Part shown: piece by piece, positions 1 to 35,264 of the stretch | Layout of the letters: each line of letters opens with the position of its first letter | Numbering within the stretch: the stretch's first letter is position 1 | Origin: Nanoarchaeota archaeon SCGC AAA011-G17 | Lineage (GTDB): Archaea > Nanobdellota > Nanobdellia > SCGC-AAA011-G17 | Reading direction: 5' to 3' | NCBI GenBank assembly: GCA_000402515.1 | Contig: AQRL01000036.1 | Location: 4,871-68,870, forward strand | Length of the DNA stretch: 64,000 bases | Translations under genes and position numbers: made by a program | Notes under the pieces: generated by a model | Database searches by the model: none | The model's input: the letters and a program-made list of their open reading frames with translations, nothing else | What the model was told of the DNA's origin: nothing

Positions 1-418
1 TTTTACTGGTTTTGTAACTGTTTCCCTGTTTCCTGTTCCTTCTACAGGCAATATCTGTGATAGCTGGGCATAATATTCCCCTGGTGCTCTACCACTTGTT
101 GAAAAAAATGCAGTACCTTTTTCATTACAAATATTACATGAACCATGCTCTGTCCTTAAATTTACATTGGCAACAAATTTAGAGCCTAATGGATCTTTTT
201 TATAAATATTCAGAGAAGTATAATATTTTCCACCATTTGGTACAGCTGTAAAGAAAACATTTGCACCCTCAGCTACTTTTGCCGGTGAAACAGTAAGTGT
301 TATTGGATTAGATGAAACTGAATAGCCTGTTGTATCTAATTTTCCTGTGTTATAAAGAGCTAATGATAAAACGAAAACGACTAATATTGTTATAATCCAT
401 TTCTGCTGCATACTATCT
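1..418 (-). CDS. N-terminal part of a secreted/membrane protein (signal peptide MQQKWIITILVVFVLSLALY); gene continues beyond window start
   Basis: Hand translation of minus strand from ATG at 416-418; hydrophobic N-terminus; ORF runs off window so absent from ORF track. Confidence 0.45.
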
Positions 419-434
419 GATTAGTATAATTTAT

Positions 435-1700
435 TTATATATCTTTCGTTTGTATCACGACTTCTTTCTCTGTTATATCTTTTATTTTCTTTGTCAGATT
501 CTGGGAAATATCCTCGATATTCATCGGCTTTTTCTTTTCTAGTTCATTAATTTCATTCTGCAAAGAATTCTTTTTGCTGGTCATGCTGTTTAATTTTTCA
601 TTCAGCACGATTAATGTTTCTTCTATTTTATTTATCGATAATTTTTCCTTTATTGACTGCTGCTCATTTATCAAAGAGGTATATTCAGATAATAAATTTT
701 TCAATGTTTCTTCTGAAATATCTTTTATTGATTCCAGTGTTTTGTCTTTTTTCTCTTCTTTTATGTCCAGCTGGTCATCTATCAATGCAGCTTCTATCTG
801 CTTTAATATATTAAAAATCTTAAAATCTTTATCCTGCTTTAATGCTTTTAATGGATTGTTGATATAGTCCTGAATTATTTCTTCCGGGGATAGTTTGTTA
901 AACTTTCTTAATGATTTATCCAAAGGCAAGAACAAAGCAAGCGCATCTGATTTTAATTTTTCTATTCTGTCTTGCAAGCTCTGATTTTCTTCCTTTAAAT
1001 TATTAAGTTTTTCAAATTCCTCTGTTTTTGAGATTTCTCCTATCTCTTCAAGCATTTTTGACTGTGAAAATTCCAACTGGGCAAACTGCTGCTTTAATGA
1101 GTCTATTTCAACCTGATAATTTTTTTTTATCTGAACTGTATTAAATAATTCTTCTGTTTGTTTTCTTATTTCAATTATCTTGTCTGCATTCTCTTCATGC
1201 AAGAAAAGCTTTATTTCTTTTATATAATCCTCAAGCTCTCTTATTTTTTTTGCTACATTCTCCAATTCATCACCTATAAGATTTTTAGCAACATGAAAGG
1301 ATTTTGTTGATTTCTCAGTAAAGTCTTTCAGGTTTTGCTCAAATTCATAGCAGAACTGCTTTGTTTTTGAAAAAGATAATTCCTCCGGGAGCTTTATTGT
1401 CTCCATGAATATTTTTGTATGCTTAATGTAAGAATTACGATTGTCAAGAATCACGTTGACTATTTTTGGATTCATCTCAGTAATTTTTGCTGTTTTTAGC
1501 TGTGTCAATGCATTATCAAGCTCGGATATTTTCTCTTCAAGCTGCTTAAATAATTCATCCAGTTCTTTTTCTTTCGGCTGAACAAAATTATTTATGTAAT
1601 TAGGAAGCTCAGAATATTCAATATAATCTTTTCTATCTTCTTCTGTTTGTATCTTTCTTTTGAACAGGCTAGTTAACCAGGACATATTTAGATTTACCAA
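435..1700 (-). CDS. Coiled-coil protein (K/E/L-rich heptad-like sequence), function unknown
   Basis: 421-aa ORF, strongly charged and low complexity (IEKLKSD, LEEKISELD patterns). Confidence 0.5.
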   Translation of the reverse strand: MVNLNMSWLTSLFKRKIQTEEDRKDYIEYSELPNYINNFVQPKEKELDELFKQLEEKISELDNALTQLKTAKITEMNPKIVNVILDNRNSYIKHTKIFMETIKLPEELSFSKTKQFCYEFEQNLKDFTEKSTKSFHVAKNLIGDELENVAKKIRELEDYIKEIKLFLHEENADKIIEIRKQTEELFNTVQIKKNYQVEIDSLKQQFAQLEFSQSKMLEEIGEISKTEEFEKLNNLKEENQSLQDRIEKLKSDALALFLPLDKSLRKFNKLSPEEIIQDYINNPLKALKQDKDFKIFNILKQIEAALIDDQLDIKEEKKDKTLESIKDISEETLKNLLSEYTSLINEQQSIKEKLSINKIEETLIVLNEKLNSMTSKKNSLQNEINELEKKKPMNIEDISQNLTKKIKDITEKEVVIQTKDI

Positions 1701-1739
1701 AGAAAGGTATAAAAGGTTATTTATTTTCCATTATACATT

Positions 1740-1985
1740 ATGTATGACTTAGAACTTGATAAGGTTATTGAAAAGATTAAGAAAGAGAAAGCAAAAAGAG
1801 TCTGCATACAATTGGCTGACGGCTTGAAACCAAGAGCAACTGAAATTGCTGATTATATAAAAAAAAGGGTAAATGCCGAAATATTTATATGGATGGACAG
1901 CTGTTTTGGTGCATGCGATGTGCCTGATGTAGATGTTGATTTGCTAATACAATTCGGGCATAACGAGTTTGGGTTTAAAAAATGA
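1740..1985 (+). pseudogene. dph2: N-terminal ~80-aa remnant of diphthamide synthase Dph2 (2-(3-amino-3-carboxypropyl)histidine synthase)
   Basis: AKRVCIQLADGLKPRATEIADYI...FIWMDSCFGACDV...DLLIQFGHNEF matches archaeal Dph2 N-terminus (AKRVLIQxPEGL...YGACD...LIHLGHS). ORF stops after 81 aa; full-length Dph2 is ~330 aa. Confidence 0.6.
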
Positions 1986-2440
1986 GGAAGATAATACTAC
2001 TAATATTATTATTGTATATTTCTGGTTGTTCTATAACTGGAAATGTTATTGGAGAGCCGAAATTAGACGGGCCTTATCTTGTAACAAAGGTAGTTGATGG
2101 TGATACTGCTGATTTACAAGGATTAGGAAGGGTAAGATTCTCAGGGATAAATACGCCTGAAAAGGGAGTCTGTTATTATAGTGAAGCCAAAGAGAAGTTA
2201 ACTAAACTAATTCTAAACAAAGAGGTTTATGCTGAAAAAGACAGGAGTGATAAGGACAAATATGACAGATATTTGAGATATATTTATTTGAATGACACTT
2301 TGGTTAATGGTGTTTTAGTTGAAGGGGGTTATGCAAGAGTTTTCGATAAATACAAGAAAGACACTGGAAGGTATGAGCAGTTGAAGAAGTTAGAAGAAAT
2401 TGCTGTTGAAAATAAAGCAGGTGTCTGGAGCTGCAATTAG
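1982..2440 (+). CDS. Thermonuclease (staphylococcal nuclease, SNase-like) lipoprotein
   Basis: Lipobox LLYISGCS; SNase motif VTKVVDGDTADL...RVRFSGINTPEKG; start overlaps the dph2-remnant stop (ATGA). Confidence 0.75.
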   Translation: MRKIILLILLLYISGCSITGNVIGEPKLDGPYLVTKVVDGDTADLQGLGRVRFSGINTPEKGVCYYSEAKEKLTKLILNKEVYAEKDRSDKDKYDRYLRYIYLNDTLVNGVLVEGGYARVFDKYKKDTGRYEQLKKLEEIAVENKAGVWSCN

Positions 2441-2490
2441 CATATTAAAGAAGAATAAAAGATTTAAACTGGAATAATTTTTATTTTTTT

Positions 2491-2847
2491 ATGGAGGCAT
2501 ATGATTTTGTTATTACAGTATTGGCGCGAAACAGAAGATATTCTAGACTAATTGAAAATAATGGGACTATTAACCATGAATGCCTTTATGAAGATATTAT
2601 AAAATGCCCTCCTGAATTCTTGAAAAAGGTAGGAATAAGAATACATCATATGCATAGATACTCTCCTGCGTTAGATGAAGCATTCTATAATCTTAGTAAG
2701 AATGTTTTAAGAAGATGGGATCCAGGAGCATATTATACCTGGGTTTTTTCAGACACACCAGAAAAATATTTTGAAGAGAAGATAAAGCCAGATCTAAGTG
2801 AAGAAGAAATCAGTGAGATTGAAGATATTGTTAATGCTATAGATTAG
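2491..2847 (+). CDS. Hypothetical protein
   Basis: 118-aa ORF; no recognisable motif. Confidence 0.35.
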   Translation: MEAYDFVITVLARNRRYSRLIENNGTINHECLYEDIIKCPPEFLKKVGIRIHHMHRYSPALDEAFYNLSKNVLRRWDPGAYYTWVFSDTPEKYFEEKIKPDLSEEEISEIEDIVNAID

Positions 2848-4044
2848 CTATTCATATCTAAGTGCATCAACTGGCTTTAGTTTTGAGGCTCTATAAGCTG
2901 GGACTATTCCTGAGATTACTCCTACAAAGAATGCAAACCCCAATGAGAAAATAAATATGTTGAGATTAAACTGAACTTTCAATAATTCAAAGCCTGCTGT
3001 TGCTGCTATAAACCCAACAAAATAAGCCATACCCAGACCAAGCACTGCTCCAATTAATCCTCCTAACAATCCAATTGCTCCTGATTCAATTAAAAAAATA
3101 ATCAAAATATCTGAATTTTTTGCCCCTATGGATTTCATTATTCCAATATCTTTTGTTCTTTCCAAAACAGAGGTGAACATTGCATTTAAAATTCCAATTG
3201 CTCCTACTAATATTGATATTGATGCTATTCCAATAAGAACTGCCTGAACTACACCAAGGATTGTATTAACCTGCGCCTTAAGCTCCTCTGGCGTGATTAC
3301 TTCAAAATCTTCATCATCCCTTGCTCTTTTCAATTCCTTTATTGTTCTTTCTTTTGCCTTTTCCAGTGTTGAGCCTTTTCTCAGATAACCGGCAATTGCA
3401 CTTACTTCTTCCGGCTTGTTAAAAATTTCCCTTCCATCGTCTAAGGAAATCCAGAACATTGTGTCTACTTCTGAAACACCTGTTTTTTTTAAAATTCCAG
3501 AGACCTTAAAATCATAGCCATTAATTTTTATTTTGTTATTAACGCGCATCTCTTTGTCAAATCTCTTATCATCCTTTTCTGTGTATTTGCTACCAACTAC
3601 CACTGCAAACTTTCCTGCTGTCTGGATACTATTACCCTGGGCTACTTCTCTTCCCATCTGTTTCATATCTTCATCAAATGTTTCTTTTGGCACTGCCTGG
3701 ATTGTTCCATACAATTCTTTTTTATTGAATTCGATATTTGCTGGAAGCCATAACATTCCTGCCACTCTTTCAAGGTCCGGAACTCTTGATACTGTTTCAA
3801 CATCTTTTTTTGTAAGACCTTCTGCCCCTAATGGCGGACCTCTAAGCCCTTTAGGCACAATCAGCACTCTATCTGCCCCCATTTGTGAAAATTGGGCTTC
3901 TACAGCATTTTGCAGCCCTTGACCTAATGAATAAAGAGATACAATTGCTGCTATCCCTATTATAATTCCAAGTATTGTAAGCCAAGCTCTTAATTTTCTA
4001 TGAACAATATTTGTTATTACAAGTTTGAATATTCCTATTTTCAT
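2848..4044 (-). CDS. ABC transporter permease, FtsX/MacB family
   Basis: N-terminal TM after HRKLRAWLTILGIIIGIAAIV, large extracytoplasmic domain, C-terminal 3-TM FtsX block (IGIMKSIGA). Confidence 0.8.
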   Translation of the reverse strand: MKIGIFKLVITNIVHRKLRAWLTILGIIIGIAAIVSLYSLGQGLQNAVEAQFSQMGADRVLIVPKGLRGPPLGAEGLTKKDVETVSRVPDLERVAGMLWLPANIEFNKKELYGTIQAVPKETFDEDMKQMGREVAQGNSIQTAGKFAVVVGSKYTEKDDKRFDKEMRVNNKIKINGYDFKVSGILKKTGVSEVDTMFWISLDDGREIFNKPEEVSAIAGYLRKGSTLEKAKERTIKELKRARDDEDFEVITPEELKAQVNTILGVVQAVLIGIASISILVGAIGILNAMFTSVLERTKDIGIMKSIGAKNSDILIIFLIESGAIGLLGGLIGAVLGLGMAYFVGFIAATAGFELLKVQFNLNIFIFSLGFAFFVGVISGIVPAYRASKLKPVDALRYE

Positions 4045-4496
4045 TTTAATACTTCTCTTATTTTTTTAATTTTAATAATGTCCTTTTTTCTTCCTAGTTT
4101 TTCATAGCTCTTGATATGCTCCTTGAGTGGTGTGACGGGAATTTTAATTCCTTCAATAATAATAATTTTTGATAACAAGGCTCTTGAAATCCATTTATCT
4201 TTTATTTTAATCTTAAAATCTCCAACCACTTCTACTTTGGTATTATTGATTTTAAACTCTCCAATATCGGATTTTACAAATTCTGAACTTGAAAATTTCA
4301 TTGGTTTGACTTCAAATTCTTTTAATAAATTGTTTATTTTAAATGCATTTTCTTTGTCAGCAAAGATATCTATGTCTTTTGGATGAACTTTAATCCCTTG
4401 TAAAGCCAAACTTGTGCTACCTCCTATAACATAATCAAATCCTTTTAACATCTTTACCAAGATTATTAGTGTTTTTTTGAATTTTATTGGTAACAT
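4041..4496 (-). CDS. Minimal nucleotidyltransferase-fold protein embedded between the two permease genes
   Basis: YVIGGSTSLALQGIKVHPKDIDIF resembles the GS...DxD nucleotidyltransferase motif; overlaps both neighbours by 4 nt. Confidence 0.5.
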   Translation of the reverse strand: MLPIKFKKTLIILVKMLKGFDYVIGGSTSLALQGIKVHPKDIDIFADKENAFKINNLLKEFEVKPMKFSSSEFVKSDIGEFKINNTKVEVVGDFKIKIKDKWISRALLSKIIIIEGIKIPVTPLKEHIKSYEKLGRKKDIIKIKKIREVLK

Positions 4497-4497
4497 T

Positions 4498-5682
4498 TTA
4501 TTTTCTTAGTGCATCCACTGGTTTTAGTTTTGCTGCCTGACGTGCTGGAAGATATCCTGAGACCAAGCCAACAACGACTGCGAATAATAATCCTCCTAAT
4601 AAGACAAGAGGATTGATTGGGACTTTCAGCATTGCGAATCCAGAGATTTTTGCAATATATTCAACAAGCTTTCCTATCCCCGCTCCAAGAATAATTCCTA
4701 CTAACCCTCCAAAAAATCCCTGTAATCCTGCTTCCACCAAAAAGATTGACAAGATATTTTCATTTCTTGCCCCAATTGATTTCATTATCCCGATTTCTTT
4801 TGTTCTTTCCAGAACATTTGTATACATTGAGTTTGTTATTCCAATTGCTCCGACAATAATTGATATTGCTGCTATTCCAACAAGAACAACTTGGATAACT
4901 CCAAGAATTGTCTGCATCTGCTTTAACACTTGCTCTGGTGTGTATAATTCAAAATTTTCATCGCCTCTTTCTCTTTTTAATTCCTTTTTTATCTTGTCTG
5001 CAACTTCATTAATATCCTTGCCCTGCTTTATTTTTATTTCGGCATAGTGCACTGTTTCTTTTAGATTAAATAAATCACGTGCATCTTCCTCTGGAACCAT
5101 AATCTGATTATCATCTTCAGAACTTCCTATTTCTTCTAAAATCCCATAAACTTCAAATTTTTTATCACTAATCTCCAGCTTGCTGTTAATTCTCAGCACA
5201 AATGGATCAAACATATCTTTTGCTACTTTATAACCTATAATTGCCTTGCCTCTTTCACCACCTGAAAAGAATTTTCCATCAATCAGATTTATATCCATGT
5301 CTGCAAGTTTCTTATCAAGCTTGTCTGTTGAAAGGCCTGCTATTGTTGTGCTTACTTCTTTGTTTGAGAATTTTACTTTCCTATCATAAAAAATAATATA
5401 TGAGTTCACCCAATCAACATCAGGCATTTTCTCTATTAGTTTTATGTCCTTGGTTGTCAGCCCTTGTGTTCCCTGACCAAATGCCCCTTTTGGTGAAAGA
5501 TAAATCCTGCCAGCCCCCATTTTCTGGAATTGCGATTCTATTGAATACTGCAGACCCTGAGAAATAGAAATCAGAGAAACAATTGCTGCAACACCAATAA
5601 TGATTCCAAGAATAGTAAGACTAGTTCTAAGCTTTCTGTGCTTTATGCTTGTAATAGCCAGCTTCAGGTATTCTTTTATCAT
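4498..5682 (-). CDS. ABC transporter permease, FtsX/MacB family (second copy)
   Basis: Paralogous to 2848-4044 (HRKLRTSLTILGIIIGVAAIV...IGIMKSIGA). Confidence 0.8.
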   Translation of the reverse strand: MIKEYLKLAITSIKHRKLRTSLTILGIIIGVAAIVSLISISQGLQYSIESQFQKMGAGRIYLSPKGAFGQGTQGLTTKDIKLIEKMPDVDWVNSYIIFYDRKVKFSNKEVSTTIAGLSTDKLDKKLADMDINLIDGKFFSGGERGKAIIGYKVAKDMFDPFVLRINSKLEISDKKFEVYGILEEIGSSEDDNQIMVPEEDARDLFNLKETVHYAEIKIKQGKDINEVADKIKKELKRERGDENFELYTPEQVLKQMQTILGVIQVVLVGIAAISIIVGAIGITNSMYTNVLERTKEIGIMKSIGARNENILSIFLVEAGLQGFFGGLVGIILGAGIGKLVEYIAKISGFAMLKVPINPLVLLGGLLFAVVVGLVSGYLPARQAAKLKPVDALRK

Positions 5683-5685
5683 CTA

Positions 5686-7068
5686 TCATTCTTTAAGAAA
5701 AGACTTCAATTTAAGCTTTATTCTCTTTGGAAGGGTAATTAGATTCTTTGGATGCAATTGTTTAAGTAATTTAAATACAAAAATCAGTGTTTTTTTTAGT
5801 GTACTCTTTAGTGCTGTTTCAAAATTTCTCAGCCTTCTCCATTCTTTATATAACATATAAATTAAGACTATAACTATTAAATAAAATATTGTAGCTGAAA
5901 GATTAGAGGTTGGCTGCGCTAAACCATATGCTATTGCCTGGCTCTTTGAATACATCGGAAGCTTTACATATTTCGTATCTTCAAATTCCTCATTATAAGC
6001 GGTCTTGTATATTACTTTTAATTTCAGGTCAATTACTTTTGATGTCCTTGCTCTTATCTTGAAATCAACTGTTTCAAAATCATCCGGCTCAAGATTACCA
6101 ATATACGTTCTTGGCGGTGAGACAACATCATACTGATTTGTTGAAACCAATTCTATTGATGAGTATCTTATTTCTGATGCACCGATATTTGAGAAGGCAA
6201 TTATTATATCTCCTACCTGGCCTGCTGTTCCTATCTTTGATTCTTCTAAATCCAGCTGATAATCTATAGGTGCCTCTACAAGAATTCCGGTTTCATAGGT
6301 GTAATTCGAGCCTGTAGAAATCAAGGAACCATCATCATTATAATAATAAATTTCTATTGGGATTTTATACGGCTTGGATTCGATGGTTGGGTTTGCTATC
6401 AAATCAAAAGAAACGGTTTTATTTTTATTTGGCAGAATCCAGGAAATTCTTTTTTCATTTGTTGAACCCACAACTGTAAATCCCTCTGGTGGTTTTACTT
6501 TTACTTCTATATTTCTTGCTGTTGATGATACGATACTTTCAAGATTAATTACTAGAGTGGATATTTGCCCCTGACTTATTCTGTCCGGAATTGTGTAAAT
6601 TAATGGCTCAAGGGATGGCTGGAGAGACTTGACTTCAATATTAAGTGAAACTATTTTTGGTCCGAATTTATAAGAACCCCCTGGATTTAATTCTACTTTT
6701 AGTTCTTGTGAGCCTGATGGGGTTTCTGGATTTACCTTAATATCCTCTATTTTAACAACAACATACTGACCTGGAGGGACTATTCCTGTACTTATTTGCT
6801 GACCTGCGTATGAAAAAGATGAAGATGGAAGAATAGAGACAGACATATCATCTGCTTTCTCTCTTCCTGTATTCTGAATTTTAAGCCATATATCAAAATA
6901 GGTTCCCTGCTGTACTGGATAAGGCTCATATCTTAATGTTGCTATAATAAGATTAGGATTAGACTAGCTAACAACAAGCTCAGAATATTCTTTTGTTATA
7001 TTCTGCTCTATAGCTAGTGATAATGGCGATATAAGCAAAACCATCAACAAATAAATTATTTTTTTCAT
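5686..7068 (-). pseudogene. Secreted CARDB/S-layer-like (COG1361-type) protein with C-terminal TM anchor; signal-peptide exon separated from the mature domain by one in-frame TAG (6964-6966)
   Basis: ATG at 7066-7068 encodes MKKIIYLLMVLLISPLSLAIEQNITKEYSELVVS. TAG is in the same frame as SNPNLIIATLRYEPYPVQQGTYFDIWLKIQNTGREKADD + the 386-aa ORF 5686-6846. Repeated V.N.G..A.NV.V...P.G-type beta-sandwich segments. Confidence 0.5.
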
Positions 7069-7116
7069 AACACCTCTTTACATCTAATGGTCTTTTTATT
7101 TATAAGATTTTGGGTT

Positions 7117-9297
7117 TTATTTCTTTCTTTGCACTATTTTTATTACCTGGCCGTCTTTAAGATAAGCTATTCTTTCTGCATATTTTGTCAGGTCTGGGTC
7201 ATGGGTAATCATTATAATTGTTTTCTTCTCTTCTCTATTGAGTTTCCTTAGAGTTTCCATTACATTTATTCCTGATTGTGAATCAAGATTTCCTGTTGGT
7301 TCGTCTGCTAGTATTACTTCCGGGTCATTTGCAAGTGCGCGTGCAATTGCCACTCTCTGACTCTCCCCTCCTGAATTATGAAGATAAATTCCATGTGTGC
7401 CAATAAATCTATTATTTTCATCTGAGACATCATAAACATATTGTGTCTTATTTATCTTTTTTATTTCTTTTATTTTTACAAAACCAACATCACCCTGAAT
7501 TATTTTTTTGTAATCTTCATGTTTCACCTTAAAAAGGATATAATTTAATAGGCCCTTTTTTATTGAATAATTTCTTTGTATATCCTGCCTCAAGATTGAC
7601 CCAATCCCAGAACATTCTGTTGTAGTAAATAACTTTCTATTTGAATCTATAAATTCAATTAAGTCTTCTTCAAATGGAATGTAATTAGGCAGAATATCTG
7701 TTTTTCCCAAACCATTAACACCAATATTGTTAAAAGTAACATTATATCCCCTTTTGTTTAGTTCCTTAGCAAATATCTCACATTGTTTACCATAAAGACA
7801 TAGTTTGTAGGATTTTCTTCTATCCCTTTGATTTGGAAAATGTGTTTCTATTGCTGGAATATAGCCCAATTGTAGGAATAAGAAATGAAGTTTCTTTGCT
7901 AATATCTCTGAAGTTGTTTTTATAGAAATCTCTCTTCTTTTTTCTTTACCTTTTATTGTTCCTTTCTTCCTATGTGTTCCATCTCCATAAGCTCCTGCTA
8001 AAAATTCTAATTTTAGCTCATTTGAAACGTTGAATAGAATATTTGGGATATTTCTTGAATAACAATTTTCTCCAACCTTAAATATTTTTAGGAAAATTAA
8101 GGAAAGTAGTTTATTGCTTGTCTCTAATTTTATTGTATTGTGCTCTTTTTCTATCTTTTTTCTTATTTTTACTTTAAATATATCTTCGAATATCTTTTTT
8201 ATACTGTTTGCTCTTTCTTTTTCATTAATTCCTAGGGTGAAAGTTATATAGTATCTGCTATTTTTTTGATCGTGCCTTACACAACCTTCTGAAGCAAAAT
8301 CTCCCAAAATCCTACATAAATTTTTATCTATTTTTATTTTAGTTGGGATGGCTTCTTTTAAATGACTTACTTTAAATCTTATTTTATCATTTTTGGTTAT
8401 AATATATTTATATTGTGGTATTTTTTTTAACTCTTTTTTTAAGTCAATAATTTTGTTATCTAAATAGGGATTATTTGGGAGATTCATAGAAATTGGAATT
8501 GTTTCCTCTTTTTTTAAATCTGAAACTTTTTTGGGAAATATCTTTCCATTTTTATAAACAAATATGCTGTGAGATCCTGTACATTCAATACTATAACCAT
8601 ATTCTGTTTTTATTTTGTAGATTGAATTGGATTTATGCCTTATGACTTGTTTTAGGCTGGTGAATATTTGTTTATATTGGTCATTGAATGTTGCTATTTT
8701 TATTGGCTCTCTTACTGTTATTCTTACCCCTTCATTTACATTTGATATTTTTTCAATGTTTTTTGAATTTTTTATTAAACTATCAACAAATTCTCCAATT
8801 TTTATTGGGATTATTATATTATTTTTTTTTACTATAATATATTCATCTTTTCCTACACTTAATTGCGAGGGCAAATGACCAAGTCTTTCTCCCAACCCTA
8901 CTTTTTTTAACAGTTCTGTTGCTCTTTTTTTTCTGTGCTGCTCGGTTGTATCCTGGAAGAGCATTGGAAGCATTACATTTTCTATAGCAGTTAAGCTGGG
9001 GATTAAATTATACTGCTGAAAGACAAAACCAATTTTTCTGCCTCTTATCTGAGCCAGAGTAGATTCTGATAAATGCGCTATGTTATGTTTATCTAGATAG
9101 ATATTTCCTTTTGTTGGAACATCTAAACAACCAATTGAGTTAAGCATTGTTGACTTTCCTGATCCAGAGGGACCAAAGACCATTAAGAATTCTCCCTGTT
9201 TTACTTCAAGATTAACACCTTTTAAAGCAGGAACTTCTACTTCACCTATCTGATATATTTTTTCTACATTATCCAATTTTATTATTATATTAGTCAT
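7117..9297 (-). CDS. ABC transporter ATP-binding protein (MacB/LolD-like) containing an intein
   Basis: Walker A GPSGSGKST, Q-loop, then PSQL|S...HN|SGGESQRVAIARALANDPEVILADEPTGNLD; exteins sum to ~231 aa, the normal size of an ABC ATPase. Confidence 0.85.
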   Translation of the reverse strand: MTNIIIKLDNVEKIYQIGEVEVPALKGVNLEVKQGEFLMVFGPSGSGKSTMLNSIGCLDVPTKGNIYLDKHNIAHLSESTLAQIRGRKIGFVFQQYNLIPSLTAIENVMLPMLFQDTTEQHRKKRATELLKKVGLGERLGHLPSQLSVGKDEYIIVKKNNIIIPIKIGEFVDSLIKNSKNIEKISNVNEGVRITVREPIKIATFNDQYKQIFTSLKQVIRHKSNSIYKIKTEYGYSIECTGSHSIFVYKNGKIFPKKVSDLKKEETIPISMNLPNNPYLDNKIIDLKKELKKIPQYKYIITKNDKIRFKVSHLKEAIPTKIKIDKNLCRILGDFASEGCVRHDQKNSRYYITFTLGINEKERANSIKKIFEDIFKVKIRKKIEKEHNTIKLETSNKLLSLIFLKIFKVGENCYSRNIPNILFNVSNELKLEFLAGAYGDGTHRKKGTIKGKEKRREISIKTTSEILAKKLHFLFLQLGYIPAIETHFPNQRDRRKSYKLCLYGKQCEIFAKELNKRGYNVTFNNIGVNGLGKTDILPNYIPFEEDLIEFIDSNRKLFTTTECSGIGSILRQDIQRNYSIKKGLLNYILFKVKHEDYKKIIQGDVGFVKIKEIKKINKTQYVYDVSDENNRFIGTHGIYLHNSGGESQRVAIARALANDPEVILADEPTGNLDSQSGINVMETLRKLNREEKKTIIMITHDPDLTKYAERIAYLKDGQVIKIVQRKK
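7375..8859 (-). mobile_element. Intein (495 aa) with LAGLIDADG homing-endonuclease domain, inserted between L and SGG of the ABC signature motif
   Basis: Begins with Ser (SVGKDEYIIV...), ends ...GIYLHN followed by S; two LAGLIDADG motifs (LCRILGDFASEG, LEFLAGAYGDGT); extein junction reconstitutes LSGGE. Confidence 0.8.
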
Positions 9298-18678: not shown

Positions 18679-18766
18679 TCTTATTATAAGAAAGTAAGAT
18701 TAACTTATTTATAAACTTTTCTGTTTGGATAGTTTTTTAAAAGCAGATTTCTTTTATTTTTATGTG

Positions 18767-18841
18767 GGCTTGTAGCTCAGCTTGGATAGAGCACCACACT
18801 CCTAATGTGGGGGTCGAGGGTTCGAATCCCTCCAGAGGCTT
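18767..18841 (+). tRNA. tRNA-Arg(CCU)-like partial duplicate with non-pairing acceptor stem (pseudo-tRNA or att remnant)
   Basis: 60 nt (18773-18832) identical to tRNA at 20708-20782, but 5' GGGCTTG cannot pair with 3' CAGAGGC. Confidence 0.5.
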
Positions 18842-18985
18842 TAGATTATAGAAGATTTTATTGTAAAGCCATTTAATGCCTCTAAAATTGAAGAGACTAT
18901 GAAAAAGATTTTGAAGTAGATAACTTAATTATTAGTTTTATTAAGAGAACGAAAGATTTAAATATAAGTTCTATTTAAAATACTT

Positions 18986-20248
18986 ATGTCAAATATAATT
19001 GATACTATAAAATTACTCAATCCTTGGTGGGAAGATGAAAGAGTTAGCGAGGAGCTTGCCAAACAGTATAAAAGAAGCTTTTTTGATAAAATACAAGAAT
19101 TTAAGAAATATAAGCAAATAATTATTCTTACAGGATTAAGGAGAGTTGGAAAAACCACCCTTATCTATCAAACAGTAAAAGAGCTGCTTAATGGAACTGA
19201 CTCAAAAAGAATTTTTTATTTTAGTTTTGACAAGGAGGTTGATGATTTAGTAGAACTTTTTGAAAATTACAAAGAGCTAACGGGAATAAACTACAAAAAA
19301 GAAAAAATTTTTGTTTTTTTTGATGAAATAACCCGATTTAAAAAATGGGCTATTGAACTGAAATTAATTTATGACTCCTGTCCTAATATAAAATTTTGTA
19401 TTTCATCGTCAAGCAGCATTAATTTGGAAGAAGATGCTATAAAAAATCTTGCGGGGAGATATTTCCTAATTAATATAAGCCCTTTGAGCTTTAAAGAATT
19501 TTTAGAATTAAGGGGTAAGGAAAAAATGATTAAAAATTATAGGCTCTACTCAAGGGAAATAAAAAAAGAGTTTTTTTCTTATTTATTGAGGAGCTTTCCA
19601 GAAACAGTAAATTGGGATAATGAACTAGTTATCAAGGATTATCTTAGAACAACAATTATAGATAAGATAATTAAATCAGATCTTCCAGAAAGATTCAACA
19701 ATATTAATAAAGAATTACTGTATAATCTCCTAGAATTATTTTATAAGGAGCCAGGATTTTATCTTGATTATGATAATTTATCAAAAAATTTAAGGATAAG
19801 TAAGAACACACTATACACTCACATTTTCTATCTTGAATTCTGCTATCTAATAAGAATTGTGAAAAATTTCAGGCCCAGCACACTCTCAACAAGCAGAAAG
19901 CTACAAAGAGTTTATCCTTATTGGTGGAATTTGGTATATTGCTATGGAGAAAATAATGACAAAATTTTAGAGTCTTTTGTCTTAAGCATAATAGACGGAA
20001 AGTATTATTGGAGGAATTTAGAAAAAGAAATTGATTTCTTAAAAATTGAAGGCAGGAATATTCTGCCTATTGAAGTTAAAAACAGAGAAAGAGTTGAAGA
20101 GCGAGATTTGAATACATTAAAATTATTTATGAGCAAGTATAAATTAAAAAAATCTCTTCTTTTATATCTTGGAGATGAAAAAATCAGAGATTATGATAGT
20201 GGAAAGATTGAATTTATTCCATTCTGGAAATGGCTCTTAACAGAATAA
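18986..20248 (+). CDS. AAA+ ATPase with DUF4143 C-terminal domain (COG1373 family)
   Basis: Walker A LTGLRRVGKTT, Walker B FFDEI, DUF4143-like C-terminal region. Confidence 0.65.
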   Translation: MSNIIDTIKLLNPWWEDERVSEELAKQYKRSFFDKIQEFKKYKQIIILTGLRRVGKTTLIYQTVKELLNGTDSKRIFYFSFDKEVDDLVELFENYKELTGINYKKEKIFVFFDEITRFKKWAIELKLIYDSCPNIKFCISSSSSINLEEDAIKNLAGRYFLINISPLSFKEFLELRGKEKMIKNYRLYSREIKKEFFSYLLRSFPETVNWDNELVIKDYLRTTIIDKIIKSDLPERFNNINKELLYNLLELFYKEPGFYLDYDNLSKNLRISKNTLYTHIFYLEFCYLIRIVKNFRPSTLSTSRKLQRVYPYWWNLVYCYGENNDKILESFVLSIIDGKYYWRNLEKEIDFLKIEGRNILPIEVKNRERVEERDLNTLKLFMSKYKLKKSLLLYLGDEKIRDYDSGKIEFIPFWKWLLTE

Positions 20249-20707: not shown

Positions 20708-20782
20708 GCCCGGGTAGCTCAGCTTGGATAGAGCACCACACTCCTAATGTGGGGGTCGAGGGTTCGAATCCCTTCTCGGGCG
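20708..20782 (+). tRNA. tRNA-Arg (anticodon CCU)
   Basis: Acceptor GCCCGGG/CTCGGGC (one G-U), D-arm GCTC-AGCTTGGATA-GAGC, anticodon arm CCACA-CTCCTAA-TGTGG, T-arm GAGGG-TTCGAAT-CCCTT; 75 nt. Confidence 0.85.
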
Positions 20783-20785
20783 CTT

Positions 20786-32209: not shown

Positions 32210-32923
32210 ATGAAAAGTATAATATTGTTAAAGGAACTTGAAAAATATAAAGTATTTAATAATAAGGTAGTTAGAGACATAATAAAAAAAGATCATAACT
32301 ATACTAGGCTGCTTATATATCGGCTTAAAAAGAGCAACTTAATTATAGAAATAGAGAAAAACAAATACACAGTACACGAAGATCCATTAATTATAGCAGA
32401 TAGTATGGTGTGGCCATCTTACCTTTCCTGCTGGACTGCTTTGAGATTTCATAACTTAACAGAACAGCTTCCAAATACAATCTTTGTTATAACAACAAGG
32501 TCTAGAAAAAACAATAAAATAGTATTTAATAATAATAAAATCATTTTTATAAAAGTAAAACAAAAATATTTTTTTGGGTATAATAAAGAAAATTACAGGG
32601 GTTATGATACATTTATAGCTGACCCAGAAAAAGCCATAATAGATTCAGCATTATTTAAGAAGATATCTTTATCTGAGTTATACACCATTATTAAAAATAA
32701 TTTAAATTCAATAAATGCTGCTTTGTTTATTGATTATTTATTAAGAATAAAAAATAAAACCCTGATAAAAAGATTTGGAATTTTATTTGATAAGCTTAGA
32801 TTAGACTTTTATGACAAATTAAAATCCTTTATTAATAATAAATATATTATATTGGATTATGCATTGCCCAAGAATAAAAACAAAAACATGAAATGGAAGG
32901 TAATTGAAAATGTTAGATATTAA
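32210..32923 (+). CDS. abiEi: AbiEi-family antitoxin/transcriptional regulator
   Basis: Upstream partner of AbiEii with 20-nt overlap; C-terminal domain similar to AbiEi. Confidence 0.6.
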   Translation: MKSIILLKELEKYKVFNNKVVRDIIKKDHNYTRLLIYRLKKSNLIIEIEKNKYTVHEDPLIIADSMVWPSYLSCWTALRFHNLTEQLPNTIFVITTRSRKNNKIVFNNNKIIFIKVKQKYFFGYNKENYRGYDTFIADPEKAIIDSALFKKISLSELYTIIKNNLNSINAALFIDYLLRIKNKTLIKRFGILFDKLRLDFYDKLKSFINNKYIILDYALPKNKNKNMKWKVIENVRY

Positions 32924-33680
32924 TGAACTAAAGAGAATTTCTGAGCTAAAAAGAATTTCATTGATAAATACAGAAAAAGATTATATCCAGGATATTATTT
33001 TATTCAGCCTTTATTCTAATATCGGAAGAGAATTTATATTTAAGGGAGGAACTTGCCTTTATAAGGTGTATAAGTTAAATAGATTTAGTGAAGATTTAGA
33101 TTTTACACTAATAAAAAATGCAGATACCAAAAATATTTTTAATAAATTAATTTATGATTTAAAACTTCTTAATATTAATGGAAATATTAAAGAGATTAAA
33201 GAATATAAAAATGAAATTAATGTGAGATTAATCTTCAATGGCCCCCTCTACAGGGGAAGAAAGGAAGAGCAGTGTTTTATTCCTATAAATATAAGCCTAA
33301 AAGAAAAAGTTCTTATAGAACCAAAAAATGAAATGATAATTTCTATGTACAAAGAAATTCCAAATTTTGAAATTTTCATTATGGATGAACAAGAAATACT
33401 GGCAGAAAAATTCAGAGCTATATTAAGCAGGGAAAAACCAAGAGATATTTATGATGCATGGTTCTTATTAATAAAGAAAAATATAAGCCCCGATATAAAG
33501 ATAATCAATAAAAAGTTATCTCTATATAATCTTAAATTTAACTTGAATAAATTTATAGATAGCGTTGAAAAAAAGAGAGGCTTATGGAATTTAGATCTTA
33601 AAAATTTAATTATAGGAGAGCTTCCTGATTTTGATGAAATTAAGAAAGAAATTATTTCTAAATTAAAAGAAAATCATTAA
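32904..33680 (+). CDS. abiEii: AbiEii/AbiGii nucleotidyltransferase toxin (DUF1814)
   Basis: FKGGTCLYKVYKLNRFSEDLDFT matches the KGGTAL...RFSEDLDF nucleotidyltransferase signature. Confidence 0.8.
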   Translation: MKMLDINELKRISELKRISLINTEKDYIQDIILFSLYSNIGREFIFKGGTCLYKVYKLNRFSEDLDFTLIKNADTKNIFNKLIYDLKLLNINGNIKEIKEYKNEINVRLIFNGPLYRGRKEEQCFIPINISLKEKVLIEPKNEMIISMYKEIPNFEIFIMDEQEILAEKFRAILSREKPRDIYDAWFLLIKKNISPDIKIINKKLSLYNLKFNLNKFIDSVEKKRGLWNLDLKNLIIGELPDFDEIKKEIISKLKENH

Positions 33681-34421: not shown

Positions 34422-35264
34422 ATGAAATATCTGGATTTTAGTAAAAAAGACCAAATTTCATTTATGAGGTTAGTTAAAGAACGAAGTAATCTTAAATGGG
34501 AAAAAATTGCACATTTTCTTGGTATCCATAGAAGTATGATTTTTTTCTATTTGAATGGTAAATCAAAGATTCCATATGAAAATTATAAAAAATTATGTAG
34601 TTTAGCAAAAATAAAACAATCACACAAATCATATGTTTTTATAAAAAATAAAATACAACCAATAAATAAAATTAATATGATTGATAATAATCTTGCTGAA
34701 TTATTAGGTATTCTTGCAGGAGATGGTCATATTTCCAATATAAATTATGAAGTTTGTGTTAGTGGGCATATGATTCTAGATAAAGAATATATCAACAAAA
34801 ATGTAGTTTTCCTTTTTGAAAAGTTATTTGGTCTTGACTCTAAATTAAAAATATACAAACCATATACCCATCTTAGATGCTGTGTTAATTCAAAATTACT
34901 CATAGAATATTTATCAAAAGAATTTAATTTACCAGTTGGAAAAAAGAAGGGGAATCTACATATTCCCAAACAAATAATTGAAGATAAATTACTATTAAAA
35001 TATTATATACGTGGTCTTTTTGATACTGATGGTAGTGTATATTTTAGACGCAAAAAAGACATTGTTGTATCAATAATTAGTGGAGATTTATTATTTTTGA
35101 ATGAGGTAAAAAATGCATTAAAAATTTTAGGATATAATCCATGCGTAAGTGGAAAAAACCTTTATCTTTATAAAAAAGAAGAGGTAAAAAGATTTTTTTC
35201 TGAAATTAATCCTATAAATAAAAAACATTTGGATAGATATTCTAATTTTTTGAAACTGCGTTAA
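34422..35264 (+). CDS. Free-standing LAGLIDADG homing endonuclease
   Basis: Two LAGLIDADG motifs: LAELLGILAGDGHIS and LKYYIRGLFDTDGSV. Confidence 0.8.
   Translation: MKYLDFSKKDQISFMRLVKERSNLKWEKIAHFLGIHRSMIFFYLNGKSKIPYENYKKLCSLAKIKQSHKSYVFIKNKIQPINKINMIDNNLAELLGILAGDGHISNINYEVCVSGHMILDKEYINKNVVFLFEKLFGLDSKLKIYKPYTHLRCCVNSKLLIEYLSKEFNLPVGKKKGNLHIPKQIIEDKLLLKYYIRGLFDTDGSVYFRRKKDIVVSIISGDLLFLNEVKNALKILGYNPCVSGKNLYLYKKEEVKRFFSEINPINKKHLDRYSNFLKLR

Follow-up and report, generated by a model that had tools for sequence, protein, structure and literature searches.

A predicted LAGLIDADG homing intein in the signature motif of an ABC transporter ATPase from a DPANN archaeon

The described inteins closest in fold to the element analysed here are PI-TkoII (PDB 2CW7), PI-PfuI (1DQ3) and the TliVMA and PhoVMA inteins (7QSS/7QST), in which a Hint splicing domain is split by a two-motif LAGLIDADG endonuclease and which reside in DNA polymerase B, ribonucleotide reductase and V-ATPase. 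The intein of Mycobacterium tuberculosis SufB (Pps1) has its host outside DNA metabolism, in SufBCD, a machine related to ATP-binding cassette (ABC) systems. According to a survey of bacterial and archaeal inteins (Novikova et al., 2016; PMC4760082), 61-67% of hosts belong to COG category L and 8-22% to category F, and P-loop inteins such as DnaB-b, MCM-a and RFC-a are inserted into P-loop NTPase domains right before a conserved nucleotide-contacting Ser/Thr. Whether inteins persist as regulators or as purely selfish elements is debated, and the bias of their hosts towards replication, repair and nucleotide metabolism feeds that debate. The present analysis concerns a 64,000-nucleotide (nt) stretch of contig AQRL01000036.1 from Nanoarchaeota archaeon SCGC AAA011-G17 (hereafter the window), which encodes a 726-amino acid (aa) ABC ATPase precursor with a 495-aa in-frame insert between the Leu and Ser of the ABC signature motif LSGG(E/Q). 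With a rough probability of 0.88, this insert is a bona fide class-1 intein, equipped with a double-motif LAGLIDADG endonuclease that is active or was so very recently, in a MacB/LolD-type ATPase of a DPANN archaeon.

The window intein shares with PI-TkoII, PI-PfuI and the TliVMA/PhoVMA inteins both the split Hint architecture (fold matches with E 6e-24 to 3e-19) and the canonical class-1 catalytic residue set, whereas identity in structural alignments is just 14-17% and its host is an ABC transporter. An 85-residue helical region preceding the C-terminal Hint half (aa 519-602, poorly modelled) has no assigned counterpart in solved inteins. SufB differs in that it is not a nucleotide-binding subunit and has no signature motif; its intein is bacterial, starts with Cys1 and occupies another site. 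As in the P-loop inteins, the insertion directly precedes a nucleotide-contacting residue of a P-loop NTPase domain, a type of site at which imprecise intein loss would kill the enzyme. Unlike theirs, the site lies in the signature motif (C-loop), which is found in ABC proteins only and functions in trans from one monomer of the dimer to the other, and the host functions in membrane transport, outside the COG categories L and F that comprise about 75-83% of hosts in the survey (PMC4760082).

The precursor gene is a single unbroken open reading frame (ORF) with an ATG start at 7117..9297 on the minus strand, as given in the ORF listing. Its translation reads ...LGERLGHLPSQL/SVGKDEYIIV ... FIGTHGIYLHN/SGGESQRVAIARAL... 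across the two junctions (slashes), which places the insertion point between L146 and S642 of LSGGE and predicts the junction peptide HLPSQLSGGESQR for the spliced ATPase. An earlier model-generated annotation of the window (the sequence-only reading) had described a 231-aa ABC ATPase split after PSQL by a 495-aa element that begins with Ser, ends in HN, is followed by SGGESQRVAIARAL and carries two LAGLIDADG motifs. ORF, boundaries and junction letters agree with this description, and both motifs were located, each with an invariant acidic residue and Gly. G+C content is 26.0% in the intein versus 34.7% and 38.4% in the exteins. A TTTATA box upstream of the gene, ending about 21 nt from the ATG, may represent a promoter element. 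In the following, WIN denotes the allele of the window, while P and L numbers denote the proteins and loci, respectively, of the alleles compared. The features of the precursor gene are:

7117..9297, minus strand: precursor gene, ABC ATPase with in-frame intein; 726 codons plus stop (7117-7119); split Pfam ABC_tran match, Intein_splicing and LAGLIDADG_3
8860..9297, minus strand: N-extein, aa 1-146, ending ...HLPSQL (Leu of the signature motif); aligns to MJ0796 residues 2-146
9148-9174, minus strand: Walker A, GPSGSGKST, in the N-extein
9004-9027, minus strand: Q-loop, in the N-extein
7375..8859, minus strand: predicted intein, 495 aa, precursor aa 147-641 (Ser1 ... His494-Asn495); missing from alleles L001 and L002, near-identical copy in the diverged L003
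8485..8859, minus strand: Hint splicing domain, N-terminal half, with blocks A and B
8830-8859, minus strand: block A, SVGKDEYIIV
8557-8586, minus strand: block B, ECTGSHSIFV, with invariant T94 and H97
7744..8334, minus strand: LAGLIDADG homing-endonuclease core, from Pfam, allele alignment and fold matches; ratio of nonsynonymous to synonymous divergence (dN/dS) 0.07-0.14
8278-8319, minus strand: LAGLIDADG motif 1, LCRILGDFASEGCV, with invariant E191-G192
7972-8013, minus strand: LAGLIDADG motif 2, KLEFLAGAYGDGTH, with invariant D293-G294
7375..7491, minus strand: Hint domain, C-terminal half, with blocks F and G
7402-7440, minus strand: block F, YVYDVSDENNRFI, with invariant D477
7375-7401, minus strand: block G, GTHGIYLHN, with invariant H494-N495
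7120..7374, minus strand: C-extein, aa 642-726; aligns to MJ0796 residues 147-224
7333-7374, minus strand: C-extein start, SGGESQRVAIARAL, with Ser+1 as the signature-motif serine
7294-7320, minus strand: Walker B, EVILADEPT, in the C-extein
7282-7293, minus strand: D-loop, in the C-extein
7198-7212, minus strand: H-loop, in the C-extein

The insert matches the Pfam profiles Intein_splicing (PF14890; E 1.1e-20, 74 bits against a curated cut-off of 35.8) and LAGLIDADG_3 (E 2.5e-08). The sequence-only reading had called for a search for Hint blocks A, B, F and G and would have been abandoned for want of them; all four were found, together with the splicing profile and the folds of solved inteins. 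The T-x-x-H motif of block B is present as TGSH at intein positions 94-97, the C-terminal blocks read YVYDV...LHN/S, and the LAGLIDADG motifs end in ...GDFASEG (E191) and ...GAYGDG (D293), both invariant. Across eight aligned alleles that are 52-83% identical to the window intein, S1, T94, H97, E191-G192, D293-G294, D477, H494 and N495 are conserved without exception, and Ser1 as well as Ser+1 are present in all nine alleles (9/9 each). An AlphaFold2 model of the precursor (mean predicted local distance difference test score, pLDDT, 79.8) found its best PDB fold matches (Foldseek) in PI-TkoII (2CW7, E 6e-24), the TliVMA intein, PI-PfuI and the PhoVMA intein; TFIIB mini-inteins match the Hint part of the model, and MJ0796 and MacB match the two extein halves. 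The first Ser of the intein is encoded by AGT/AGC in 7/7 intein-bearing alleles and Ser+1 by TCN, the same as the Ser codon of intein-free alleles, and thus the ambiguity of an S...S boundary is resolved at the DNA level. By its sequence, the insert is predicted to be a bona fide class-1 intein that is ordinary in every tested respect.

Intein-free alleles were identified by a search with the extein. The closest, P0121/L001 (GCA_017973895.1), is a 231-aa protein with an uninterrupted PSQL/SGGESQ that is 96% identical (aa) to the spliced extein, and a second, P0122/L002, is 87% identical (aa) with an uninterrupted PSQL/SGGES. L001 aligns to the spliced window gene at 88.5% nt identity and also aligns in the flanks, and the L001 and L002 contigs contain the same CARDB gene downstream. 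The comparison with intein-free relatives suggested by the sequence-only reading thereby yielded the same site uninterrupted in both proteins, and its expectation that splicing would restore LSGGE is borne out by an allele with exactly that junction. Removal of the insert at this point would leave a natural, functional-looking gene.

Comparison of the intein-bearing alleles addresses mobility. The exteins of WIN and P0001/L003 are 83.8% identical at the nt level (104/660 mismatches) with a synonymous divergence (dS) of 0.89, while their inteins are 98.8% identical (18/1485 mismatches) with a dS of 0.024, a difference in mismatch counts with a Fisher p = 7e-38. Mismatches end at gene nt 432 and restart at 1932, with the intein at 439-1923; the tract of high identity (gene nt ~433-1931) consists of the intein plus at most 6-8 nt per side. 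The P0001 allele was recovered independently as L003 (ENA) and L015 (a JGI data set). Against L004 (P0002), dS is 0.65 for the intein and >2 for the extein, and against L012 (P0003) intein dS is also below extein dS. Furthermore, the WIN extein is nearer to the intein-free P0121 (96%) than to the intein-bearing P0001 (90%), and invaded exteins are scattered among uninvaded ones in a neighbour-joining tree, which is poorly resolved at ~65% identity and was read only as indicating that invaded alleles are not obviously monophyletic. The ratio dN/dS, which is unreliable for distant pairs with saturated dS (nan or >2) and was therefore taken from the WIN/L003/L004 and L007/L014 comparisons, is 0.03-0.07 for exteins of intein-bearing alleles. 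In the LAGLIDADG core it is 0.07-0.14, a constraint no weaker than that on the Hint domain, and within the intein conservation peaks in the C-terminal Hint region (97% aa identity, dN/dS 0.05). These sequence comparisons show that the intein has moved recently between diverged alleles and that purifying selection acts on exteins, Hint domain and endonuclease core alike. The low intein dS, the ends of the tract at the junctions, the empty alleles and the constrained core together argue for a homing cycle with a working endonuclease, and the idea that the endonuclease is active or very recently active and the element actively homing is supported by them. The low dN/dS of exteins in intein-bearing alleles argues that the host gene is still functional and, hence, that the intein splices.

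The host belongs to the ABC superfamily by its Pfam ABC_tran match (E 1.1e-30), which falls into two separated stretches of the precursor, and by the canonical order of Walker A, Q-loop, LSGGE, Walker B, D-loop and H-loop in the 231-aa spliced extein. MJ0796 (PDB 1F3O/1L2T) is the closest solved structure by sequence (E 5.7e-69), followed by MacB and LolD; its alignment covers query residues 6-150 and 642-719 and places S642 on the serine of the LSGGQ signature, S147 of the chain. Both extein halves therefore align to an ABC ATPase with every ABC motif present, as the sequence-only reading had proposed to examine. Best partial NCBIfam matches were to LolD, MacB, DevA and FtsE models, all under the equivalog cut-offs because of the 495-aa insertion. 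Assignment to MacB/LolD/FtsE-type nucleotide-binding domains (NBDs) is supported, and no specific equivalog is claimed. The earlier label 'MacB-type' holds up on the NCBIfam and PDB matches (MJ0796, MacB, LolD) and on two downstream permease genes with MacB_PCD and FtsX domains, and applies if taken to denote a type VII ABC system made up of separate subunits. The downstream genes are:

5686..7068, minus strand: secreted CARDB/NPCBM_assoc (NEW3) surface protein, next gene of the operon; ATG at 7068 with signal peptide; in-frame TAG at 6963-6965
4498..5682, minus strand: permease 1, MacB_PCD and FtsX (Pfam)
2848..4044, minus strand: permease 2, MacB_PCD and FtsX (domain match)

The order of ATPase, CARDB protein and permease(s) is kept in all related loci retrieved, intein-bearing or intein-free (L002, L004, L007, L012, L014 and L022-24), and the CARDB/NEW3 gene between ATPase and permeases is the only hint to the substrate or role of the transporter. 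The L001 ortholog of this gene has CAG (Gln) in place of the in-frame TAG, and the remainder of the window gene after the TAG is listed as a 386-aa ORF (5686-6846). Stop-codon reassignment was considered for this TAG and rejected since 4/42 long ORFs in the window end with TAG; the codon is either a nonsense mutation or a sequencing/population variant. No other ABC ATPase was found in the window as a possible secondary intein target, and LSGG-like matches at 5254 and 41064 are due to chance. The window also encodes AglB/STT3 and an archaeal-type ProRS and has a G+C content of 31.6%, and homologs carry the database names Candidatus Woesearchaeota or Nanoarchaeota; these features mark the source as a DPANN archaeon.

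In an ABC dimer, ATP that sits in the Walker A motif of one monomer is covered by the signature serine and glycines contributed by its partner, and this serine contacts ATP across the dimer interface, as in the ATP-sandwich dimer of MJ0796 (1L2T). In the mechanism proposed here, which follows standard intein chemistry, the 726-aa precursor would be translated first, and Ser147 (intein Ser1), aided by the Thr and His of block B, would undergo an N-O acyl shift at the Leu146-Ser147 bond. The ester would then be attacked by Ser642 (Ser+1, the signature serine) to give a branched intermediate, from which cyclisation of Asn641, aided by His640, would free the intein. An O-N shift would restore a native Leu-Ser bond, with a 231-aa ATPase carrying LSGGE and a free 495-aa endonuclease as the products. 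Prior to splicing, the 57-kDa insert in the signature loop would be expected to block productive closure of the NBD dimer and to keep the precursor inactive, and therefore the transporter should depend on splicing. The view of the sequence-only reading that it could work only after splicing would thus follow from ABC dimer structures. The free endonuclease is predicted to cut intein-free alleles at the LSGG-coding site, where repair would copy the intein in (homing). This would keep the element polymorphic and carry it between diverged alleles in groundwater DPANN populations.

Several points weigh against this interpretation. Splicing, DNA cleavage and the inactivity of the precursor are all inferred, and both nucleophiles are Ser, which implies an oxy-ester chemistry that is often slower than that of Cys. 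The LAGLIDADG_3 match is confined to the region of the second motif, and the structural model is poor (pLDDT <50) at residues 440-452 and 524-583. The evolutionary sample is small, with about nine alleles of which seven were compared at the DNA level, and all sequences are metagenome assemblies, but the P0001 allele occurs in two independent data sets. In addition, the in-frame TAG in the next gene may point to decay of the operon in this genome. That TAG, together with an intein G+C content (26%) below that of the host gene, is what could be cited for an intein that no longer splices and for an ATPase gene, or even an entire operon, that has become a pseudogene here. We consider this quite improbable: the 726-codon ORF is intact, as are both permease genes, all splicing and endonuclease catalytic residues equal the family consensus, and the lone TAG could be a sequencing or population variant. 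With just 18/1485 nt differences from the L003 copy, any inactivation would moreover have to be very recent.

Somewhat less improbable, and still unlikely, is a domesticated intein whose conditional splicing gates the transporter post-translationally, its mobility being incidental or extinct. Insertion into a catalytic motif would make splicing obligatory for activation, the C-terminal Hint region is more conserved than the rest of the intein, and sensor roles have been argued for inteins in ATPase motifs by Novikova et al. (2016; PMC4760082). A fixed regulator is at odds, however, with presence/absence polymorphism among alleles that are 96% identical, with an intein dS 37-fold below the extein dS in a tract that ends at the junctions, and with purifying selection on the endonuclease core. 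The extreme rarity and patchiness of the element are the signature of a selfish homing cycle, and Ser/Ser nucleophiles would offer no thiol for redox sensing. That the insert is instead an accessory domain found normally in some ABC ATPases, or a chimera of the assembly, has next to no probability left: ABC NBDs sometimes have extra domains, and otherwise only the initial uncertainty spoke for it. Hint and LAGLIDADG profile and fold matches, the occurrence of the same architecture in independent ENA, JGI, NCBI and Logan assemblies, and inteins in NrdD, HerA, TFIIB, XPD and Top6A as the closest non-ABC relatives of the insert all argue against this explanation. The sequence-only reading had itself raised the accessory domain as a doubt. 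The 96% identical uninterrupted protein settles it, since alleles with an exact empty site exclude such a domain; profiles, folds, empty sites and independent assemblies jointly refute both variants. A class-1 intein in a homing cycle is therefore the interpretation we retain.

A second intein site was identified in the same kind of host. Sister MacB-type ATPases from DPANN archaea (P0015-P0018 and P0020-P0024; 740-788 aa) contain a LAGLIDADG intein of ~510 aa (507-560) in Walker A, with the junctions GPSGSGK/C...HN/ST. Like the signature-site intein, these reside in the orthologous ATPase family, in organisms named Nanoarchaeota or Woesearchaeota, encode LAGLIDADG motifs and end in HN/S; they differ in site, in having Cys1 instead of Ser1 and in showing remote similarity only (phmmer E 1e-8 to 1e-14 in a nine-sequence database). 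Such remote similarity argues for independent invasions and points to Walker A and the signature motif, the two halves of the composite ABC ATP site, having been invaded separately. Each of the two ABC insertions directly precedes a nucleotide-contacting serine. At the signature site, the Leu codon before the insertion (8860-8862 in the window) is TTA/TTG in 7/7 invaded alleles. Among intein-free alleles, L001 and L002, the two nearest, have CTC, L022/L023 (counted as one allele) have CTT and L024 has TTA; CTC makes up 3.1% of Leu codons in the window ORFs. This pattern, which rests on four independent empty sites, is only a lead that would fit co-conversion of this flanking codon with the intein or selection for uncuttable targets.

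The signature-site intein is rare. About nine protein clusters carry it, all from DPANN archaea (Woesearchaeota-like). An intein-only search of 5.8 billion clustered proteins returned the ABC alleles P0001-P0008 and the fragment P0241 as the only close set, followed by P0242 (37% identity, Aenigmarchaeota) and then by inteins in TFIIB, NifU-like and RpoA'' proteins. In a profile search of 1.84 billion representatives, the single strong match was the P0003 cluster (905 bits); the next reached 217 bits, and those next-best matches that were checked are inteins in NrdD, a B12-binding radical-SAM-type protein, HerA, TFIIB, XPD and Top6A. One of 185,579 GTDB species genomes was positive (Woesearchaeota RIFCSPLOWO2_01_FULL_32_21). 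A search of 241 million metagenome records yielded seven loci, which come from groundwater samples of the Rifle and Hainich type. With a virus as vector in mind, the intein profile was also run against IMG/VR and gave no match. The alleles were already public with precomputed Pfam intein domains, under no other name than 'ATP-binding cassette domain-containing protein'.

The ABC intein clade thus stands well apart, with 905 bits inside and at most 217 bits outside. The nearest sequence relatives of its Hint half are P0242 (37%) and P0243 (38%), with profile matches of <=217 bits. DPANN relatives have PriS-like, NrdD, HerA, XPD and Top6A hosts and occupy other sites than the ABC intein, and the TFIIB mini-inteins (Mvu/Mja, PDB 5O9I/5O9J), 29-32% identical in the fold alignment, lack an endonuclease and differ in host and site. 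An N-terminal pattern, ..PIIIK.N..I..IKIGEFVD, is common to the ABC intein and its TFIIB and DPANN relatives. The P0242 intein begins with Ser and is inserted after ...GIKF, at an FSG.RG.H-type motif, so that its local context x/SG resembles L/SGG; its host looks like the primase PriS by sequence.

Scanning the window with hidden Markov models (HMMs) of both ABC intein types gave matches limited to the 7117-9297 ORF and an ORF at 34422-35264. The latter, on the plus strand, is a free-standing 280-aa ORF with HTH_3 and LAGLIDADG_3 that matches the Walker-A-intein HMM with E 2.7e-13 and adjoins an AbiEii toxin gene (32904-33680); it could represent a homing endonuclease that stands alone or a domesticated derivative. 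The syntenic relative L004 contains, at 3938-7102, a 714-aa intein-type gene with Hom_end_hint, Hom_end and KH domains, and a free LAGLIDADG_3 ORF (312 aa) lies beside the Hom_end_hint gene, a few kb from the ABC intein gene. Genomes related to that of the window seem rich in homing elements. In L012 (the P0003 genome), the intein-bearing operon is preceded (1-5241) by a PadR regulator, a DDE transposase, two MORC/HATPase_c_3 genes and a GmrSD gene, which is a defence or mobile-element neighbourhood. The window also contains two tRNA-Arg(CCT) genes on the plus strand (18766-18842 and 20708-20783), 2 kb apart around a 420-aa ORF (18986-20248), and this pair could be a duplication or an integration site.

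No account of an intein within an NBD of the ABC superfamily was found in the searchable literature, and such an absence is not proof. Neither 'ABC' nor 'transporter' occurs in the main text of Novikova et al. (2016; PMC4760082), and the same applies to the Anaeramoeba intein paper. The statement of the sequence-only reading that the site is unusual stands as far as this literature goes and is not supported beyond it. Taken by itself, the element is a textbook intein; its novelty lies in residing in an ABC transporter ATPase and, there, in the signature motif. It is a tentative proposition, on balance doubtful in its full form, that this is the first described intein family on the ABC signature motif, that DPANN archaea host it in an active homing cycle, and that intein-free alleles may escape through synonymous 'immunising' codons.

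The known picture of how inteins work remains unchanged and the case is mechanistically unsurprising; its use lies in the selfish-versus-regulatory debate and as a well-documented instance of ongoing homing in DPANN archaea. The window intein is a clean counter-example to the host bias, combining a membrane-transport ATPase, sequence evidence for ongoing homing and an intein-free allele in the same population type. A transport host with evidence of homing supports the view of inteins as selfish elements, with a choice of target that follows from the conservation of DNA coding for a catalytic motif and not from the function of the host. The ABC signature motif is the hallmark of the largest ATPase superfamily, and the rule that inteins sit in ATPase motifs would here reach beyond the P-loop to the ABC-specific signature loop. 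DPANN archaea would be an added reservoir of uncatalogued inteins, and the compact natural junction L/SGG in combination with a Ser1/Ser+1 intein could interest protein engineers. If the tentative proposition above is true, the intein would constitute a natural Ser/Ser-splicing switch on a membrane transporter and, together with the independent Walker-A intein, would make both halves of the composite ABC ATP site intein targets.

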